A stretch of DNA of 64,000 bases from Spirochaetia bacterium (GTDB taxonomy: Bacteria; Spirochaetota; Spirochaetia; CADAEX01): positions 3,200,001 to 3,264,000 of the forward strand of contig OY759746.1 in NCBI GenBank assembly GCA_963662795.1, written 5' to 3'. The translations under genes were made by a program, and so were the position numbers. The notes under the pieces were generated by a model. That model was not told the DNA's origin, searched no databases, and saw nothing but the letters and a program-made list of their open reading frames with translations. Every line of letters begins with the position of its first letter. Position 1 is the stretch's first letter. This document shows positions 30,768 through 40,206 of the stretch, piece by piece.

Positions 30768-30796
30768 TTGACATAAAACTGATATTTGGATATTTT
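30768..30796 (+). promoter_or_regulatory. Sigma70 promoter of the tRNA-Gln/tRNA-Glu pair
   Basis: TTGACA (30768-30773)-N17-TATTTT (30791-30796), 14 nt before tRNA-Gln. Confidence 0.65.
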
Positions 30797-30810
30797 AAGA
30801 ACGAATTTAT

Positions 30811-30881
30811 TGCCCGATAGTGTAACGGTAACACTCATGATTCTGGATCATGTTTTGGGGGTTCAAATCCTCCTCGGGCAG
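30811..30881 (+). tRNA. tRNA-Gln(CTG)
   Basis: Acceptor TGCCCGA/TCGGGCA, anticodon arm CATGA-TTCTGGA-TCATG, T-loop GTTCAAATC. CCA not encoded. Confidence 0.95.
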
Positions 30882-30894
30882 AAAAATCTGATAG

Positions 30895-30966
30895 GGCCCC
30901 TTCGTCTATCGGTTAGGACAGGAGATTCTCATTCTTCAAAGAGGGGTTCGATTCCCCTAGGGGCTA
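30895..30966 (+). tRNA. tRNA-Glu(CTC)
   Basis: Acceptor GGCCCCT/AGGGGCT, anticodon arm GGAGA-TTCTCAT-TCTTC, T-loop GTTCGATTC. CCA not encoded. Confidence 0.95.
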
Positions 30967-30968
30967 TT

Positions 30969-31006
30969 AAAAACCTGTTCAGTAATTGCTTATTGAACAG
31001 GTTTTT
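30969..31006. repeat. 38-bp direct repeat, copy 1 (terminator hairpin of the tRNA operon)
   Basis: AAAAACCTGTTCAGTAATTGCTTATTGAACAGGTTTTT with 13-bp perfect inverted arms; identical to 37030-37067. Confidence 0.93.
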
Positions 31007-31429
31007 GTTTCTGCACTGCGTTTGTAATACCAAATTATTCTACTTTTTATTCACTGATAATCAGTGTAATAATTGTCTTAACTATTATCTGCTCTGTCAA
31101 TTTACATAACGAATATTTTTTTCAGAGAAAGGTCTCCGGTTTATTTTTGTATCAATATAGGTCTTACCGTAAAATCAAAAGTTTTTCCGGTATTGTATGA
31201 GTAAAAATACCTGGATTACTGTGAAATATAAGACAAATTGAATATTGAATAAAAAATGTATAGAGAGAATCCTGATTTGGAGTTAACATATCAATGAAAC
31301 ATTATGCCTTTAATCAGCTTAGAAGCGGCAGTTAATATATTTCATAGTTAAAATTATAAATAGTAAACTGAATATACGCTTCATATCCTCATTCTTTTGA
31401 TGAATACAACAGGTGATAAGGAGAAATAA

Positions 31430-33298
31430 ATGAGTCGTATCTGCTATGCAGCATATAATGAAGATTTCATTAAACTGGCAGAAGGAATATTTAAAAAGCT
31501 GGGTAAAGATGTTGACATTCAGATATATGATCCTGGAAATCCCGGAGAGCTTGAGAAAAAAGGCCTCAGGGTCCTTATGGCACGCGGAGCAACCGCAATG
31601 AAAATAAGAAAAGCAGTGGATCTTCCAGTTGTGGAAATACCTATCCCTTTTGAGGACCTGATTCAGGCTTTAAATACAGCAAGCAGAATTGGCAGGAGAA
31701 TCGGTGTCGTCGGGTCAGGCAATCTTCTGCAGGGTCTTGATAATCTTAATCCCCTTTTAAATGTAAGCATAACTCAGGTTCAGGCAAGAAATGAAGACGA
31801 TACAATCAAGCAAATGCTTAAACTTAAAAATGAAGGCATAGATGTATTCGTAGGAGGGAAACTGCAGGCGCGTATCGCAAAAAAACTGCAGATGAATTAC
31901 GTAAGGATTGATTTCAGCGAAAAAGCGCTTTCTTATGCAATTTCCGAAGCTGAGGCCTTGCTCGATACAACCTTCTGTAATGTGAGAAAAAATGAAGAGC
32001 TTAACGCAGTTCTAAACCATACACAGGAAGGGTATATAGCAATCGATACTTTCGGGACAATTTCAATGATTAATAAAACTGCCCTTAAACTGCTTCCGGA
32101 TAATCAAAACCCCATAGACAACCCTCTTATAGATATTTTTCCTGAGTTAAAAGATCTTCTGGAAGTATTAACAACCGGAACAGCAAGGATGCAGGAGATA
32201 TTATACCTTAAAGGAACATCTGTCCTGTGTGATATGATTCCCCTAAAACTGGGCAACAATGAGAGAATAGGAGCGATTGCAACATTTAATGATACAAAAA
32301 CCATAACTATGGGAGAACAGAAAATCCGGAATAAACTGATGAGTAAGGGATTGATAGCAGAATATCATTTTGATGATATAAAAGGGTGCAGCAGTGAAAT
32401 CAGGGAATGTATTAAAAACGCGAAACTGTTTTCAGCATCAGATTTAACTGTGCTGATAACCGGGGAAACCGGAATAGGAAAGGAATTATTCGCCCAGAGT
32501 ATCCATAATTCAGGAGAAAGAAAAAAAGGGCCTTTTGTCGCTGTGAACTGCGCCTCGCTTCCTGAAAGTATTCTTGAAAGCGAATTGTTCGGATATGAGG
32601 AGGGTGCGTTTACAGGCGCCAAAAAAAACGGAAAACCGGGTCTGTTCGAACTTTCTCACAAAGGAACAATATTTCTGGATGAGATAAGCGAAATGCCACT
32701 GGTACTGCAGGGAAGACTGCTTAGAGTTCTTCAGGAAAGAAAGGTGATGAGACTTGGAAGTGACCGTTTTATCCGGATTGATGTAAGGATAATCGCGGCG
32801 ACCAACAAAAAACTTAGAGAACTTGTAAATGAAAAAAAATTCCGGGCGGATCTTTTTTTCCGGCTTAATGTACTGACATTATTTATACCTCCTCTTAGAG
32901 AAAGACAGGAGGATATTATTGAGCTTTTCATGGAACTCTGGAATTATTCGTCAAAAAGCAGAAAACTTGAAATACTGGACAGTGCTGTAGAAGCGCTGGA
33001 AGAATACAATTGGCCTGGTAATGTAAGACAGCTGAAGAATTTCATTTCAAAGCTGAGTATTATCAACACAGAAGAGGTAATAACAGGGGAGATCATAAAA
33101 ACAATGATAAAAAAATATGAACCCTGTATAGATGAAGAAAAAAAAGAAACAATGTCTTATAAAGGCAGTAAAACAATTTCTGAAAGAGAGGTGAAAGAAG
33201 CCCTGATAAAAGCTGAAGGAAGTCATAGCCGTGCAGCAGAAATCCTTCAGATACACCGGAGTACCTTGTGGAGACTTTGCAGGAAATTTAAGTTCTGA
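31430..33298 (+). CDS. Sigma54-dependent transcriptional activator, PrpR-like (PrpR-N + PAS + AAA+ + Fis HTH)
   Basis: ARGATA...V..PVVEIP (PrpR-N), PAS-like segment, GETGIGKE, ESELFG, GAFTGA, FLDEISE, WPGNVRQL, AAEILQIHRSTLWR. Confidence 0.93.
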   Translation: MSRICYAAYNEDFIKLAEGIFKKLGKDVDIQIYDPGNPGELEKKGLRVLMARGATAMKIRKAVDLPVVEIPIPFEDLIQALNTASRIGRRIGVVGSGNLLQGLDNLNPLLNVSITQVQARNEDDTIKQMLKLKNEGIDVFVGGKLQARIAKKLQMNYVRIDFSEKALSYAISEAEALLDTTFCNVRKNEELNAVLNHTQEGYIAIDTFGTISMINKTALKLLPDNQNPIDNPLIDIFPELKDLLEVLTTGTARMQEILYLKGTSVLCDMIPLKLGNNERIGAIATFNDTKTITMGEQKIRNKLMSKGLIAEYHFDDIKGCSSEIRECIKNAKLFSASDLTVLITGETGIGKELFAQSIHNSGERKKGPFVAVNCASLPESILESELFGYEEGAFTGAKKNGKPGLFELSHKGTIFLDEISEMPLVLQGRLLRVLQERKVMRLGSDRFIRIDVRIIAATNKKLRELVNEKKFRADLFFRLNVLTLFIPPLRERQEDIIELFMELWNYSSKSRKLEILDSAVEALEEYNWPGNVRQLKNFISKLSIINTEEVITGEIIKTMIKKYEPCIDEEKKETMSYKGSKTISEREVKEALIKAEGSHSRAAEILQIHRSTLWRLCRKFKF

Positions 33299-33311
33299 AA
33301 AACTTTTTTAA

Positions 33312-33357
33312 TGTTGCAAAAAACGTTGCAAATGTTTCATGTAAAACATCTGCAACA
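33312..33357 (+). promoter_or_regulatory. Putative enhancer (UAS) for the PrpR-like activator
   Basis: Palindrome GTTGCA-A-ATGTTT-N6-AAACAT-C-TGCAAC (33325-33356) plus an extra TGTTGCAAA half-site at 33312, about 140-180 bp upstream of the sigma54 promoter. Confidence 0.55.
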
Positions 33358-33494
33358 CTATAACTAATGATTTTCAGGACAGACAGCCGCATAATCCCTC
33401 TAGATTATTTATTTTTAAGCCGTTTAAAGCAGAAAAACAGTCAATTATCGTAAAATTATTCAAAATCCCAGATAACCTATCAAAATCTCAAGTT

Positions 33495-33510
33495 TGGCAC
33501 AGTAATTGCT
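33495..33510 (+). promoter_or_regulatory. Sigma54 (-24/-12) promoter of the aldolase-symporter-dehydratase operon
   Basis: TGGCAC-AGTAA-TTGCT matches TGGCAC-N5-TTGCW exactly; 39 nt before the start codon and next to a GAFTGA activator gene. Confidence 0.9.
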
Positions 33511-33549
33511 GTTACTTATGCAATTATAAGAATTATAAAGAGGATAATT

Positions 33550-34581
33550 GTGATTGACTTAAGAAGTGATACTCTGACAAAGCCTACAAAAGCTATGTAC
33601 TCTGCAATGATGAATGCTGAGCTGGGAGATGAAGGAAGACTGACAGATGATAAAAGAGGCGGCGATCCTACAATACGGCTGCTTGAAGACAGGGCGTCTG
33701 AAATAACAGGCAAGGAATCTGCCCTGTTTTGTGTAAGCGGTTCAATGGGAAATCTACTCGCCCTTATGACATATACAAATTATGGTGATTATTGTGCTGT
33801 GAACGAAAATCTTCATGTGTGCCGGAGCGAAAAAGGTATTTTTGCGGACAGACCCGGAGGTATCAAACCGCTTTTTTACGATACTGATTTACTCGGCACA
33901 CCGGATATTGCATCTATTGATGAACTGTTAAATAAAAACAGTGTAAAAGCGGCATGCATTGAAAATACAAATAATTTTTTCGGAGGCACCTGTATAACAC
34001 CCGATTATATCGCAGATATTTCAAAAACCGTAAAGAAATATAATGTTCCTCTTCATATGGACGGAGCAAGATTGTTTAACGCCTCAGTATATCTAAACGC
34101 AGATGCAAAGGAAATTACAAGGCATGTTGATTCAGTGATGTTCTGTATCTCCAAAGGACTTGGAGCACCTGTAGGGTCTCTTCTTTGCGGTAAAAAAGAT
34201 TTTATTGAAAAAGCAAGGGAGAATAAAAAATATTTGGGAGGTGTTGTCAGACAGGGGGGTATTGTAGCGGCTGCGGGGATACAGGCCCTTGATACAGAAA
34301 TACCTCTTTTGAAAATCGATCATGATAACACAAAAATGCTTGCTGACTTGCTGTCTGAAATACCTGAATTGAAGATCAATAAAAAATCTGTACAGACAAA
34401 TCTTCTGAAAATTGACATTTCCGGAACAGGAATGGCTGCTGATATTTTTACAGGGAAGTTAAAGGAAAAAGGATTACTGGTAAATGCTGTTGACTCAGGA
34501 AGTATCAGAATTGTTTTATACAAGGAAATAAACCGCAGACAGGTCGAAGAATCTGTTCAAATTATAAAAAGCTGTTTATAG
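33550..34581 (+). CDS. Low-specificity L-threonine aldolase family protein (LtaE-like, PLP fold I)
   Basis: IDLRSDT.TKPT, SGSMGN, IENTNN..GG, LHMDGAR.FNA, CISKGLGAPVGS, GGVVRQ.G. Confidence 0.88.
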   Translation: MIDLRSDTLTKPTKAMYSAMMNAELGDEGRLTDDKRGGDPTIRLLEDRASEITGKESALFCVSGSMGNLLALMTYTNYGDYCAVNENLHVCRSEKGIFADRPGGIKPLFYDTDLLGTPDIASIDELLNKNSVKAACIENTNNFFGGTCITPDYIADISKTVKKYNVPLHMDGARLFNASVYLNADAKEITRHVDSVMFCISKGLGAPVGSLLCGKKDFIEKARENKKYLGGVVRQGGIVAAAGIQALDTEIPLLKIDHDNTKMLADLLSEIPELKINKKSVQTNLLKIDISGTGMAADIFTGKLKEKGLLVNAVDSGSIRIVLYKEINRRQVEESVQIIKSCL

Positions 34582-34649
34582 CAGCCGAAAAATGTCTCTT
34601 ATATAGAAGGTCAAAATGTACCTTCTAATTTTATATTCAGGAGTACTAT

Positions 34650-35876
34650 ATGTATAAATGGTGGAAAAAACAATCGCTTTCCATGAAAGTCCTAATCGGA
34701 ATGGTTCTCGGTATCGCAGTTGGGATGATATGGGGACCAGGCGCAGTACAAATCAAATTTATCGGCGATATTTTTATTAATTTGCTTCAAATGGCCCTTA
34801 TCCCGATAGTTTTATTTGTAATGAGTTCTGCAATCTGCAGTGCAAAAAATCCTAAAACACTGGGAAACATCGGTGGAAAGGTTATTGCCTATTATATGCT
34901 TACAACAGTATTGGCTGCTGTAGTCGGGCTTGTTGTCGGTAAAGTGCTTCGGCCTGGTGTTGGATTCTCATTTGCAGGTATTTCAACAGAGGGTGTAAAA
35001 CTGGCAGAATTTACATCATTTCAGGATTTTATCCTCGACCTGTTTCCGAAAAACATTATAAGTTCGATGAGCTCTGGGAATGTACTTCATGTTGCTGTTT
35101 TTTCAATCTTCATAGGGCTTGCAGTTGTTTTTATGGGTGAAAAAGGAGAACCAGTAAGAAAGGGTCTCAAGTACATGTCGGATCTTGTACAGTCTCTGGT
35201 CGGAATAATAATTTCCTTTTCACCTATTGGCGTATTCTGTCTGATGGCGGCTACTTTCGGTAAATACGGTTCTTCACTTTTTGGTCCCATAGCTAAACTG
35301 CTTGGAACTTTCTATCTGGGAGCTATAGTACATTTCCTCCTTGTTTATATCCTCCTGCTTTGGATAGTAACTAAAATATCTCCATGGACATTTATCAAAA
35401 AAGCATCTGCATTAATGATTTATACCATGAGTACCTGCAGCAGCACCGCTTCAATTCCTATAAATCTTAAAATAGCAAAAGAGGAATTTAACCTTTCCGA
35501 TGCTGTGGCGAATTTTACAATTCCGCTTGGTTCCCAGATAAATAAGGACGGGAACGGAGTTCTGCTTCCTATCGTTCTTATTTTTACAGCACAGGCGGCA
35601 GGAATTTCAATTTCTATTCCCCAGATGTTCCTTATGGTAGGTTTTGCGGTTCTTGTTACCTTAGGCGGCGGCGGAATTCCCGGTTCTGGTATTGTGAAAA
35701 TTGCTGTACTTGTAGCTGCATTTAACCTTCCGCTTGAAATAGTACCTATTATGGCCGGTTTATACAGACTTGTGGATATGGGTATAACTACTCTTAACTG
35801 CACAGGAGATCTTGCCGGAGCCATAATAATTGACAAACTTGAAGAGAATCGGCTGAAAAAAGAAAAAGTTGCATAG
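34650..35876 (+). CDS. Dicarboxylate/amino acid:cation symporter (DAACS, GltP/SstT family)
   Basis: IGDIFINLLQM, STCSSTASIP, PLGSQINKDG, GIPG, DMGIT.LNCTGD; many TM helices. Confidence 0.92.
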   Translation: MYKWWKKQSLSMKVLIGMVLGIAVGMIWGPGAVQIKFIGDIFINLLQMALIPIVLFVMSSAICSAKNPKTLGNIGGKVIAYYMLTTVLAAVVGLVVGKVLRPGVGFSFAGISTEGVKLAEFTSFQDFILDLFPKNIISSMSSGNVLHVAVFSIFIGLAVVFMGEKGEPVRKGLKYMSDLVQSLVGIIISFSPIGVFCLMAATFGKYGSSLFGPIAKLLGTFYLGAIVHFLLVYILLLWIVTKISPWTFIKKASALMIYTMSTCSSTASIPINLKIAKEEFNLSDAVANFTIPLGSQINKDGNGVLLPIVLIFTAQAAGISISIPQMFLMVGFAVLVTLGGGGIPGSGIVKIAVLVAAFNLPLEIVPIMAGLYRLVDMGITTLNCTGDLAGAIIIDKLEENRLKKEKVA

Positions 35877-35885
35877 ATATTGTTC

Positions 35886-35907
35886 CCCCCTGTTAAAATA
35901 CAGGGGG
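35886..35907 (+). other. Intra-operon hairpin between symporter and dehydratase
   Basis: CCCCCTGT-TAAAAT-ACAGGGGG, 8-bp stem, no long U-tract. Confidence 0.45.
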
Positions 35908-35961
35908 ATTAAGTTATGATAATATAATTAAAAGTTTTTTTGCAAAACAGCTGAGGACGGA

Positions 35962-36921
35962 ATGACCGGAGTTGATGACATTATAAATGCAGAGAAGCAG
36001 ATATCGCCCTATATCAATTTCCAGCCTCTGATTTACAGCAGTTATTTCAGTGAAAAATTCAACAGTAAAATATTTTTTAAACCCGAAAACCTACAGGTAA
36101 CCGGTTCTTTCAAGATTAGGGGTGCTCTTAATAAAATTCTGTCATTAAATGAAAGTGAAAAAAAATCCGGAATAATTACTGCCTCCTCAGGAAATCACGC
36201 ACTGGGGGTTGCGTTCGGCGCAAAACTGACTGGCACAAAGGCTGTTGTTGTAATGCCTGAAAACGCTCAGAAAGCAAAGATTGAAGGAGTTAAAATCCTG
36301 GGGGCTGATGTTGTATTATTTGGACAAACACCTGTTGAAAGGTATGAGAAGGTATTTCAGCTTCAAAATGAATTTGGATATACACTGATACATTCATGCG
36401 ATGATTCAAAGGTGATTGCAGGACAAGGTACAATCGGACTCGAAATTATGAAGGATTTAAATAATGCAGACTCTGTAATAGTACCTCTCGGTGCCGGAGC
36501 TCTTCTTGCGGGAATAGCCTGTGCAGTAAAAAACTATAATCCCAAAATTCGTGTGATCGGTGTTGAACCTGACGCAATTCCCAGATTCACAGTCAGCAGA
36601 AAAGCAAATAAGCCTCAGGATGTCCCATATAATCCGACAATCGCTGACGGTTTAAGAATGACCAGGACTTATCCGCAGCTTTATGAAATGATTGAGAAAT
36701 ATGTTGATGAGATTATAAGCGTTTCAGAGGAGTTCATAAAACAGGCTGCAAGAGAGGTTATTCTGAATGGCAGGCTGGTAGTTGAACCTTCAGGTTCAAT
36801 CGGTCTGGCTGCAATTCTGTCATGCAGATTAAAGCTGAAAATGGGAAGGAAAAATGTAATTGTATTGTCAGGCGGGAATATAGATCCTGTCATTTTATGT
36901 CGATTAATCAGTAATCAGTAA
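35962..36921 (+). CDS. Threonine/serine dehydratase or serine-racemase family PLP enzyme (fold II), no regulatory domain
   Basis: KPENLQVTGSFKIRGA, ASSGNHA, AGQGTIGLEI, PLGAGAL, TIADGL, VVEPSG, LSGGN; 319 aa. Confidence 0.9.
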   Translation: MTGVDDIINAEKQISPYINFQPLIYSSYFSEKFNSKIFFKPENLQVTGSFKIRGALNKILSLNESEKKSGIITASSGNHALGVAFGAKLTGTKAVVVMPENAQKAKIEGVKILGADVVLFGQTPVERYEKVFQLQNEFGYTLIHSCDDSKVIAGQGTIGLEIMKDLNNADSVIVPLGAGALLAGIACAVKNYNPKIRVIGVEPDAIPRFTVSRKANKPQDVPYNPTIADGLRMTRTYPQLYEMIEKYVDEIISVSEEFIKQAAREVILNGRLVVEPSGSIGLAAILSCRLKLKMGRKNVIVLSGGNIDPVILCRLISNQ

Positions 36922-37121: not shown

Positions 37122-38693
37122 TTAATTTTCACCCAGAACATATGTGTTGTAATAATAATCAATACTGTCGATCAGCGCTTCCCATGATGCTTCAACAATA
37201 TTTTCCGAAACTCCGACAGTATCCCATTCAATCTTATGGTCGGTTGTCGTAATAAATACTCTTACTTTCGCGGCAGACGCCGATTCAGGGTTGAGTATTC
37301 GCACCTTGTAGTCAATCAGGCTGATTTTTTTGAGAAAAGGGTAGTGCGGAGTCAGGGCATCCCTCAAAGCCTTGTCAAGAGTATCGACAGGGCCGACGCT
37401 TACGGCAGCTCCAAGAACATTTTTTCCCAGTGATTGCATGAATATCCTGCCGACAGTTTTGCTCGGAGTATCACCTGTTTTGTAGGATTCAAGGTGATAG
37501 TTATTCAATTCGATAATTGGTTCGTATTTTTTTATGGTTTTTCTAATCAGAATATCAAATGATGCTTCCGCGGCCTCATATTCATAACCCTCTTCCTCTT
37601 TTTCCTTGAGGACCTCAATGAGGTTCTGAACCTCGGTGCTTCCTTTGTCAAATTCTCCGTATTTTGCCAGTTTATTGACAATAGTGGATTTGCCTGAAAG
37701 TTCAGAAAGCAGTATTTTTCTTGAATTGCCGACAAGCTTGCTGTCAATATGCTCCATCAGGTCAGGGGCCTTGTTGATAACGTCTGCATGCTGCCCCGCT
37801 TTGTGGCTGAATGCTGCTTCCCCTACATAGGGCTGTCTTTTTTCAGGTATGATATTTCCAATTTCATAAACATATCTCGAAAGAGATGTTATCCTGCTGA
37901 TTTCCGGGGCAATGCTGGCGTCATAGTCAGTTTTGAGGCAGATATTGGGCGCAATAGCGCAAAGATTTGCGTTGCCGCATCTCTCCCCCCAGCCGTTTAT
38001 CGTTCCCTGTATCTGGATTGCGCCGTAATCAAGGGCTAAAATCGAATTGGCTACAGCTGTACCGCAGTCATTGTGAAAATGAACCCCGAGCGGGGCAAGC
38101 TTATCAACAGGAAGTTTTTTCAGTATATTTATCACTTCGGAGGGGAGAACTCCTCCATTGGTATCGCACAGGACAAGGGTTTTAGCCCCTGCATCAGACG
38201 CAGTCCGGAGAACTTTTATTGCGTATTCGCTGTCATCCTTGAATCCGTCAAAAAAATGTTCAAGGTCAAAGAGAACTGTTCTTCCCTGTTTTTTAAGATA
38301 TGCAATTGAATCGTGAATCATCTCAAGATTTTCCTCAGGCGATGTTCCGAGAACTCTTTCAACATGCCCTTTCCAGGTTTTTCCCACGATCATAATATGT
38401 TCAACTTCAGCCTGAAGCAGCGCATTTAAATGATTATCTTTATCTGCCGCAATTCCCGGTTTTTTGGTTGAGCCGAAAGCGACAATTTTTGCGTGCGACA
38501 ATTTCTCTTTATTCATATGAGTGAAAAAAGATGCCTCTTTTTTATTGGCAAGCGGAAACCCTCCTTCTATATAGTCGAATTTCATCTCATCAAGTTTGTG
38601 GGCAATCTTTATCTTGTCTGTAAGCGTAAAGTTTATTTCAATTCCCTGCATTCCGTCACGCAGTGTTGTGTCATATAGTTCAATTTTTTTCAT
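37122..38693 (-). CDS. cimA: Citramalate synthase
   Basis: YDTTLRDG.Q, YIEGGFP, AFGST, EHFFDG, LCDTNGG, HFHND, GERCGNANL, AFSHKAG.H, YEAAEASF, W.TVGVSENIVEASW. Confidence 0.88.
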   Translation of the reverse strand: MKKIELYDTTLRDGMQGIEINFTLTDKIKIAHKLDEMKFDYIEGGFPLANKKEASFFTHMNKEKLSHAKIVAFGSTKKPGIAADKDNHLNALLQAEVEHIMIVGKTWKGHVERVLGTSPEENLEMIHDSIAYLKKQGRTVLFDLEHFFDGFKDDSEYAIKVLRTASDAGAKTLVLCDTNGGVLPSEVINILKKLPVDKLAPLGVHFHNDCGTAVANSILALDYGAIQIQGTINGWGERCGNANLCAIAPNICLKTDYDASIAPEISRITSLSRYVYEIGNIIPEKRQPYVGEAAFSHKAGQHADVINKAPDLMEHIDSKLVGNSRKILLSELSGKSTIVNKLAKYGEFDKGSTEVQNLIEVLKEKEEEGYEYEAAEASFDILIRKTIKKYEPIIELNNYHLESYKTGDTPSKTVGRIFMQSLGKNVLGAAVSVGPVDTLDKALRDALTPHYPFLKKISLIDYKVRILNPESASAAKVRVFITTTDHKIEWDTVGVSENIVEASWEALIDSIDYYYNTYVLGEN

Positions 38694-40206
38694 TATTCAT
38701 TTCCTTTGATAGCAGTATTTTATTAAGCGCGCTTACGTATGCGATTGCACTTGCTTCAAGAATATCTGTTGATGAACCCCTTCCTTTTGAATCAACTCCG
38801 TCCACAGAAATTGAAACCTGTACTTCTCCCATCGCCTGTTTTCCAGGTGTAACCGCATGTACCTTGTATTCTTTAAGTATGGCGTTGACTCCTATTGCCC
38901 TTTCAATTGCCCTGAAAATAGCATCGACCGGGCCGTCTCCTGTTGCAGCTTCTTCCAGTACAGTATCATTATGTCTTATTTTAATGGTCGCCGTAGGAAT
39001 GGAAGTATTGCCGGATAATATATTAAAATATTCAAGTTTGTAGGATGATGAGTACATTCCAAGTTCGTCAATTATAATTGTAATGAGATCTTCGTCATAA
39101 ACCTCTTTTTTTCTGTCCGCAATATAGAGAAATTTGTCAAATATTTTTTTTGACTCTTCTTCTGATATGACAAAACCAAGCTCGCCAATTCTTTTTTTGA
39201 ATCCGTGGAATCCGGAATGCCTACCCAGAACAATATCGCTGCTGCCCCTGCCAATTGAGGAGGGAGTCATGATTTCATAGGTTTCCCTGTGTTTTAACAG
39301 TCCGTCCTGGTGGATTCCTGATTCATGGGCAAATGCGTTATCGCCCACAACGGGTTTGTTTCTTGAGATTTCAAGCCCTGTAATGTTTGAAATAAGTCTT
39401 GATGAATTATATATCTGATTTGTTTTGATGTTAGTGGTATATTTAAGCAGGTCTTTTCTGACTGACATAACCATGATTAATTCTTCAAGAGCGGCGTTGC
39501 CGGCCCTTTCTCCAATTCCGTTGATTGTCACTTCTGCCTGTCTTGCTCCGGCCTCTATGGCGGCAAGGGTGTTGGCAACCGCAAGTCCAAGATCGTTATG
39601 GCAATGCACAGAGATAATTGCCTTGTCAATATTGGGTACATTGTTTTTTATCCCGGTTATTATATTACTCATCTCCTGCGGGATTGTGTAGCCTACCGTA
39701 TCCGGTATATTGATGATTGTCGCACCGGCCTCTATTACTTTTTCTATTATTGAATATAAAAACGGCAGGTCACTTCTGGTTGCGTCTTCAGGTGAAAACT
39801 CAACTTCCGCGGCCTTGTTCTTCGCGTATTTTACAGCTTTTACTGCCATCTGAATTATTTCTTCAGGGGGTTTGTTGAATTTGTATTTCATGTGTATTGG
39901 TGATGTTGCGATAAAGGTGTGGATCCTTGAATGCTGTGCTTTTGCTACTGCTTCTGCTGCAATATCAATATCCTTTTCAACCGCTCTTGCGAGCGCAGTT
40001 ATAACAGGTCCCTTGATATTTTCTGAAATCATTTTGCAGGCCTGAAACTGCTGGGGAGATGAAACAGGAAACCCGGTTTCAATCGCGTCAACTCCCATCC
40101 TTGATATCTGTACAGCAACCTCATATTTTTGTTCCACAGTCATTGATGCGCCGGGGGATTGTTCTCCGTCCCTGAGTGTCGTATCAAAAATAAATATACG
40201 CTCCAT
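38680..40206 (-). CDS. leuA: 2-isopropylmalate synthase
   Basis: [56 protein letters not shown]. Confidence 0.95.

Follow-up and report, generated by a model that had tools for sequence, protein, structure and literature searches.

A Sigma-54-Associated Aldolase, Carrier and Dehydratase Locus in a Spirochaete: A Candidate System for Importing and Degrading a Neutral β-Hydroxy Amino Acid

Introduction

Threonine is a major amino acid of mucin and a preferred fuel of gut anaerobes, and the transporters and regulators through which it reaches fermentation have been little characterized except in Escherichia coli. Which amino acid, then, is handled by a four-gene locus found in a Spirochaetia bacterium (GenBank assembly GCA_963662795.1, contig OY759746.1, positions 3,200,001 to 3,264,000 of the forward strand; this stretch of 64,000 nucleotides is the window hereafter, and positions are counted from its first letter)? 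The four genes, all on the same strand, encode a sigma-54 activator, a threonine-aldolase-like enzyme, a cation symporter and a short dehydratase-like enzyme. We read the locus, at a little better than even confidence, as a putative operon for the inducible uptake and two-route breakdown of a neutral β-hydroxy-α-amino acid, most likely L-threonine and possibly allo-threonine or serine. This reading is supported by the fact that all three structural genes belong to families with studied members acting on threonine.

A preliminary description, made from the DNA letters, had proposed a self-contained sigma-54 module for the import of a β-hydroxy amino acid such as 3-hydroxyaspartate, followed by its retro-aldol cleavage and its dehydration or epimerisation. 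All the sequence features which it listed were found in their places, including the motifs ASSGNHA of the dehydratase and LHVCRSEKG of the aldolase. The module does carry its own control elements. Seven loci have the activator and the -24/-12 promoter, six of them with clustered upstream half-sites; import, retro-aldol cleavage and dehydration are also what family membership predicts. The acidic substrate named as the example fared worse, as discussed below. The features of the locus, including the pyridoxal phosphate (PLP) enzymes, are as follows.

31430-33298, plus strand: sigma-54 enhancer-binding activator, 622 amino acids (aa), with the domains PrpR_N, PAS (weak), Sigma54_activat, AAA lid and HTH_8
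33306-33363: putative upstream activator sequence, three GTTGCA/TGCAAC half-sites arranged as nested palindromes (inverted repeats I3 and I4)
33495-33510, plus strand: -24/-12 element TGGCACAGTAATTGCT, pattern TGGCAY-N5-TTGCW
33550-34581, plus strand: fold-type I PLP aldolase of the insertion-bearing L-threonine aldolase subfamily, 343 aa, GTG start (Beta_elim_lyase, 5.5e-82)
34604-34627, plus strand: hairpin with T-rich tail in the gap between aldolase and carrier, a weak candidate for a partial terminator or attenuator
34650-35876, plus strand: cation symporter of the DAACS/SDF family, 408 aa (SDF, 1.3e-107)
35962-36921, plus strand: short fold-type II PLP enzyme of the serine/threonine dehydratase and racemase superfamily, 319 aa (PALP, 1.2e-77)

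The Conserved Core of the Locus

The aldolase and the carrier constitute the conserved core, which the dehydratase joined later in this lineage. A survey of 401 genomes of the class gave seven with an aldolase match at E <= 1e-70, six of which carry the insertion described below (G133 is without it). All four genes are also found together in G011 and G008, two genomes from a different genus of the same family, with other flanking genes. Identities to the window proteins are 74% (activator), 74% (aldolase), 93% (carrier) and 68% (dehydratase) in G011, and 71%, 71%, 89% and 67%, in the same order, in G008. The set is found without the dehydratase in G002 of the same genus (activator 73%, aldolase 47%, carrier 43%), a genome which has no close dehydratase anywhere, and in G200 of another family (63%, 45% and 41%, respectively). 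For the dehydratase, close orthologues are confined to G011 and G008, and the matches which follow them in identity (38-45%) come mostly from frames of about 400 aa or more. An aldolase search of contigs gave one locus, the same as that of G008, and a plasmid search gave no match.

Furthermore, a profile-guided metagenome scan returned 80 loci, 8 insertion-bearing and 72 canonical, and six of the former eight have downstream DNA. A carrier with a neutral-type pocket lies directly 3' of the insertion-clade aldolase in 11 of the 12 loci with readable downstream DNA (five of six genomes and all six metagenome loci), and among the 72 canonical metagenome loci there was no carrier or activator match at the thresholds set. 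The preliminary description had let its reading depend on the co-occurrence of the three structural genes in other genomes; aldolase and carrier do occur together nearly always, but the dehydratase accompanies them only in one small spirochaete subclade.

The Carrier

Transmembrane helix 8 (TM8) of the carrier reads YRLVDMGITTLN, in which the aspartate for the amino group is kept and isoleucine stands at the arginine position. These assignments follow GltPh numbering, in which the aspartate is taken to bind the α-amino group and Arg397 the distal carboxylate. The TM8 motif Y-R-L-[F/V]-D-M-G-[T/I]-T-T is present in all ten readable partner carriers, with isoleucine at the arginine position in the type found in the window and threonine in the others (type B); E. 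coli GltP and DctA have retained the arginine, as have two other carriers encoded in this genome. The operon carrier is therefore without the residue by which a carrier of acidic amino acids or dicarboxylates is recognized, and the absence of this residue from the partner carriers is the main argument against 3-hydroxyaspartate or any other acidic substrate. By comparison with GltPh and the ASCT transporters, aspartate kept with arginine replaced presumably marks neutral substrates, and by these residues the binding site of the operon carrier is of the neutral amino-acid type. No NCBIfam cut-off is passed by this protein (135 bits with the SstT model NF010151, or 136.6 in a search of the genome, cut-off 308); it is 25% identical to SstT and 29% to GltP, and matches a chain from the deposition of an ancestral-reconstruction study at 6e-96.

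Two further carrier loci were observed. In G200 the partner carrier (locus L029, G200:C20, 8095-9339) is split into open reading frames (ORFs) of 309 and 84 aa, by a frameshift or an assembly error. At G000:C1:547314-551904 an SDF carrier has asparagine at the TM8 arginine position, and some 3 kb away there is a distant member of the PALP family, 27% identical to the operon dehydratase; this may be a second pairing of a carrier with a PLP enzyme.

The Aldolase Subfamily

The aldolase belongs to the L-threonine aldolase family, having the Beta_elim_lyase domain, the PLP lysine, the stacking histidine and two carboxylate-binding arginines. These residues (His89, Lys202, Arg174 and Arg320) are invariant or nearly so across 26 diverse members and align with His83, Lys199, Arg171 and Arg316 of the T. 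maritima enzyme and with Lys222 of E. coli. The closest solved relative is the L-allo-threonine aldolase of T. maritima (1jg8, 8e-69), and the identity to E. coli LtaE is 36%.

Within the family, this protein and its relatives are characterized by an insertion of 6-7 residues after GD[DE], a 6-residue deletion, a small C-terminal insertion and a loop of the form H-x-x-x-[S/T/N]-E-K, compared with the canonical H-I-x-H-Y-E-[L/M]. Both the insertion after GD[DE] and the loop are present in all of the best 120 database matches, among whose sources, by name, are Clostridioides, Tissierella, Anaerosphaera, Pyramidobacter, Planococcus and Oceanobacillus; the loop which had been noted at the outset as atypical is the signature of a whole subfamily. 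In a quick maximum-likelihood tree of 59 rows (one incomplete row left out), the 33 insertion-bearing and 26 canonical rows separate with an SH-aLRT support of 100, and the window aldolase groups with G011, G008 and P0002 at a support of 99. This sub-branch has asparagine at the position of His125, and so do 16 of 125 insertion-bearing rows picked by motif pattern. The residue replaced by the insertion presumably lines the active site. Judged by its sequence, the aldolase falls in a large branch of the L-threonine aldolase family that has neither a name nor a studied member.

The name "GntG family" was considered for the aldolase and proved uninformative. The GntG model (NF041359, cut-off 230) gives 303 bits for the operon aldolase, 448 for E. 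coli LtaE and 436 for the canonical copy of this genome, and E. coli LtaE outscores every subfamily member tested, so the model is generic and silent on the substrate.

An insertion-clade aldolase is also found in a methylaspartate-pathway setting. In this locus (L030, G287:C1, 4971-13512) the order of genes is an SDF carrier of the arginine type, a racemase of the Asp/Glu type, the aldolase, methylaspartate ammonia-lyase and a TRAP transporter, and upstream of them, in divergent orientation, are an ORF of 139 aa and a gene of the MutL type, the partner of glutamate mutase.

The Dehydratase

The closest solved relative of the dehydratase is TdcB (1.8e-68), ahead of the serine racemases; the protein is 42% identical to E. 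coli TdcB and has no C-terminal regulatory domain. Models of threonine ammonia-lyase give 321 and 299 bits (the latter with TdcB NF006389, cut-off 453), and rank above those of L-threo-3-hydroxyaspartate ammonia-lyase (NF005454, 252 bits, cut-off 452) and BhcB (NF045641, 229 bits, cut-off 550). E. coli TdcB gives the same ranking. The phosphate loop reads GAGAL in the spirochaete subclade (seven sequences) compared with the usual GGGGL. As for the features of serine racemases, the second serine (SSGNH) and the metal-site glutamate are present, and arginine stands at the position aligned with the aspartate ligand (Asp216 of serine racemase). The rule given in the preliminary description, that threonine dehydratases have SAGNH and serine racemases and L-threo-3-hydroxyaspartate ammonia-lyases SSGNH, agrees with two TdcB sequences (SAGNH) and four serine racemases (SSGNH), but breaks down with the "threonine deaminase" of T. 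thermophilus (1ve5), which reads SSGNH.

This dehydratase is the sole enzyme of the IlvA/TdcB type in the genome. Next to the operon and convergent with it, on the minus strand (37122-40206), lie a citramalate synthase gene (597 bits, cut-off 450) and one for 2-isopropylmalate synthase. The probable route to isoleucine is thus via citramalate; the dehydratase would not be needed for it and is read as catabolic.

The Activator and Its Target Sequences

The activator is a sigma-54 enhancer-binding protein with an AAA+ domain (Sigma54_activat PF00158, 5e-67), GAFTGA at residue 392 and a C-terminal helix-turn-helix (HTH_8, 2e-05). It falls below the equivalog cut-offs of PrpR (381 against 499 bits) and PrdR (380 against 795), with which it has the architecture alone in common. 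The genome has rpoN (391 bits, cut-off 277) and 13 matches to the sigma-54 interaction domain at E <= 6e-47.

Orthologues with 63-74% identity adjoin the aldolase in G011, G008, G002 and G200, and the PrpR_N domain is 69-80% identical among these proteins. Between the window and G002, which is without the dehydratase, the sensor domain and the ATPase domain show the same identity (76% each). Since the sensor is as conserved as the ATPase, the same signal is probably sensed with or without the dehydratase, and the aldolase route is probably the common function. The activator is presumed to be the sensor of the operon substrate. In total seven loci pair the aldolase with a sigma-54 activator of the PrpR_N type (one of them, L044, on a fragmented, low-coverage contig), and in two metagenome loci a divergent LysR gene replaces it, so aldolase-carrier loci come with one of two regulators, a LysR protein or a sigma-54 activator of PrpR_N-PAS architecture.

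The element at 33495-33510 has the properties of a sigma-54 promoter, that is, TGGCAC-N5-TTGC with the correct spacing and a gene close downstream; the last base of the GTG start codon of the aldolase follows 42 nt after its end. It is the only match to TGGCAY-N5-TTGCW in the 64 kb, where 0.13 are expected, and 12 of 100 shuffles contained at least one match. Moreover, TGGCA[C/T]-N5-TTGC is present in all seven activator loci, where 33-60 nt separate its end from the last base of the start codon of the aldolase.

Upstream, the palindrome arms GTTGCAAATGTTT (33325-33337) and AAACATCTGCAAC (33344-33356) are 92% complementary. The half-sites lie about 140-190 nt 5' of the promoter, and the three in the window compare with a shuffle mean of 0.12, a figure which is descriptive only because the motif was chosen after inspection of the data. 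Clustered GT[T/C]GC[A/G] half-sites, three to five each, are present in six of the seven activator loci, and five of the six loci besides the window have four or five. One metagenome contig (L046, 1850-2200) has between the activator gene and the half-sites a long array of tandem repeats of about 33 bp, for example GTGTGCTGTATATAATGCTGTAGATA.

As regards other features of the region, hairpin-type sites number five against a shuffle mean of 4.7, and the hairpin at 34604-34627 is therefore weak as a terminator or attenuator. A 107-aa ORF just 5' of the activator (30786-31109) is without Pfam or NCBIfam match.

The Proposed Pathway and Its Alternatives

On the threonine reading, the PrpR_N-PAS activator would sense the substrate or a close derivative, bind the GTTGCA/TGCAAC repeats and drive the promoter at 33495-33510. 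The carrier would bring the amino acid in with cations, and the aldolase would cleave it to glycine and an aldehyde (acetaldehyde in the case of threonine) as the core reaction. From a second share the dehydratase would release ammonia, leaving 2-oxobutyrate or pyruvate as the 2-oxo acid, a second route specific to this lineage. Glycine may enter the glycine cleavage system; GcvT is present in the genome. A search of the genome for glycine reductase (PF09338 and PF04723) gave no match, but is uninformative because control genomes were equally unmatched.

Several observations speak against ordinary threonine. A canonical LtaE is encoded elsewhere in the genome (C1:1695115, 439 bits with a cut-off of 312), and the operon aldolase fails the same cut-off (model NF007825) with 230 bits, five other members of the insertion clade giving 210-265. 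In addition, the substrate loop is remodelled. Serine and asparagine stand in place of Tyr87 and His125, respectively, which are counted among three substrate-contacting residues (review PMC4761611), and the subfamily conserves further basic residues, Arg30 without exception and Lys95 in nearly all of the rows displayed. The dehydratase and five relatives pass no NCBIfam equivalog cut-off, and SSGNH, not the SAGNH of TdcB, is found in it and in 119 of its 120 nearest database relatives. The NMDGT motif of the carrier is altered to NKDGN (residues around 297-301) and reads N[Y/T]DGS in the other partner carriers; lysine in the operon carrier replaces the methionine, which lies next to one sodium site, and this may change the ion coupling. 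Finally, the aldolase of G287 lies beside methylaspartate ammonia-lyase and an arginine-bearing carrier, and its start overlaps the stop of the Asp/Glu-type racemase gene by 4 bases.

A rarer neutral β-hydroxy amino acid, such as L-allo-threonine, 4-hydroxythreonine, β-hydroxy-leucine or -valine, phenylserine, or D-threonine after epimerisation, is a possible substrate, though a tentative one; in this lineage the SSGNH enzyme would then be an epimerase or dehydratase for the second stereoisomer. Several of the above points favour it: the canonical LtaE elsewhere in the genome, the separate aldolase branch (support 100) with its insertion and remodelled loop, the score below the LtaE cut-off together with a partner carrier which passes none, and the second serine of serine racemases in the dehydratase. 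With equal reserve, the aldolase subfamily and its dedicated carrier might be regarded as a widespread catabolic module for a non-proteinogenic β-hydroxy amino acid in place of ordinary L-threonine, to which, in this spirochaete lineage, the SSGNH enzyme would add the second stereoisomer by epimerisation or dehydration. However, asparagine at the position of His125 is compatible with threonine cleavage, since kcat was reportedly doubled and activity not abolished in H126N/F of E. coli (review PMC6411801). In addition, none of the neighbour genes in 12 loci points to an unusual aldehyde product, and the pair occurs widely among anaerobes of gut and sediment, as would be expected for an abundant substrate.

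It is unlikely that the aldolase-like protein is instead a racemase, an epimerase or a β-lyase acting on serine, alanine or cysteine, and the operon a general catabolic unit for small amino acids. Threonine aldolases are promiscuous, the subfamily has no studied member and its closest-scoring solved chain is the insertion-less T. maritima enzyme (8e-69), and the G287 member stands between a racemase and methylaspartase with no obvious β-hydroxy substrate; nevertheless, the residues of aldolase chemistry are all conserved in the 26 diverse members. Least probable of all is the preliminary suggestion of 3-hydroxyaspartate, or another acidic β-hydroxy amino acid, giving glycine and glyoxylate by the aldol route and oxaloacetate by ammonia elimination: it would accord with the SSGNH motif common to the dehydratase and serine racemases, with the extra arginine and lysine of the aldolase subfamily and with the G287 surroundings, but isoleucine or threonine replaces the carboxylate-binding arginine in ten of ten partner carriers, the hydroxyaspartate lyase and BhcB models rank below those of threonine lyases in the dehydratase as in E. 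coli TdcB, arginine occupies the position of the racemase metal ligand, and genes of the BhcA and BhcD types are absent from the cluster.

Significance

What is defined here is an unstudied threonine-aldolase-like branch, its fixed carrier partner from the glutamate transporter family, with a binding site remodelled towards a neutral substrate, and a dedicated sigma-54 activator with a conserved binding motif. If threonine is the substrate, the locus would offer a compact model of inducible threonine use and a natural example of an aspartate-type carrier changing its specificity. If the substrate is another one, it would point to an undescribed nutrient niche common to spirochaetes, Bacillota and organisms of the Synergistota type (the last by source names). 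The preliminary description did not recognize the combination as a described pathway, and no account of it was found in the literature searched, including a search aimed at threonine aldolase under sigma-54 control; Table 1 of PMC6615313, with its 39 activator groups, has no such operon.

Comparison with Known Systems

The tdcABCDEFG operon of E. coli, which serves anaerobic breakdown of threonine and serine, resembles the present locus in combining within one unit its own activator, an importer for these amino acids and a short PLP dehydratase of catabolic type. However, it is without an aldolase and has tdcD-G, which are missing from the window operon. TdcC is annotated as a threonine/serine:H+ symporter, presumably of a family other than SDF. 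The activators are annotated as TdcA and TdcR, which are not known to be sigma-54 activators, unlike that of the window, and TdcB reads SAGNH where the operon dehydratase reads SSGNH. E. coli LtaE and T. maritima 1jg8 have the fold, family, PLP lysine, stacking histidine and both carboxylate-binding arginines in common with the operon aldolase, which differs from them in its insertion, altered loop, 6-residue deletion, asparagine at the His125 position and linkage to a carrier gene.

The β-hydroxyaspartate cycle (BhcABCD) and L-threo-3-hydroxyaspartate ammonia-lyase likewise combine a PLP aldolase and a fold-type II dehydratase acting on a β-hydroxy amino acid. BhcC is of fold-type III, whereas the operon aldolase is of fold-type I; furthermore, the carrier here has no arginine for an acidic substrate, and the dehydratase falls well short of the cut-offs of the BhcB and lyase models.

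In threonine fermentation by C. difficile, also an anaerobe, threonine dehydratase and threonine aldolase are the two gateway enzymes, as described in a preprint (bioRxiv 10.1101/2023.09.18.558167), so the same two entry reactions serve one amino acid; the two genes are not presented there as an operon. CD2733 of C. difficile, which has a "Na+/H+ antiporter" neighbour, may belong to the insertion clade; the C. difficile cluster with P0108, possibly the same protein, comprises 11 members on few contigs. C. difficile CD2732 has the PrpR_N-PAS architecture (PMC6615313, supplement), but this likeness is non-specific because the architecture is common to 35 other activators (PMC6615313).

Lastly, E. 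coli SstT and mammalian ASCT1/2 belong to the same family as the operon carrier and likewise have the arginine for the side-chain carboxylate replaced. The threonine of the type B partners at this position presumably matches that of ASCT1. The operon carrier, whose identity to SstT is so low, has an altered NMDGT motif and is closer in sequence to the aspartate carriers.

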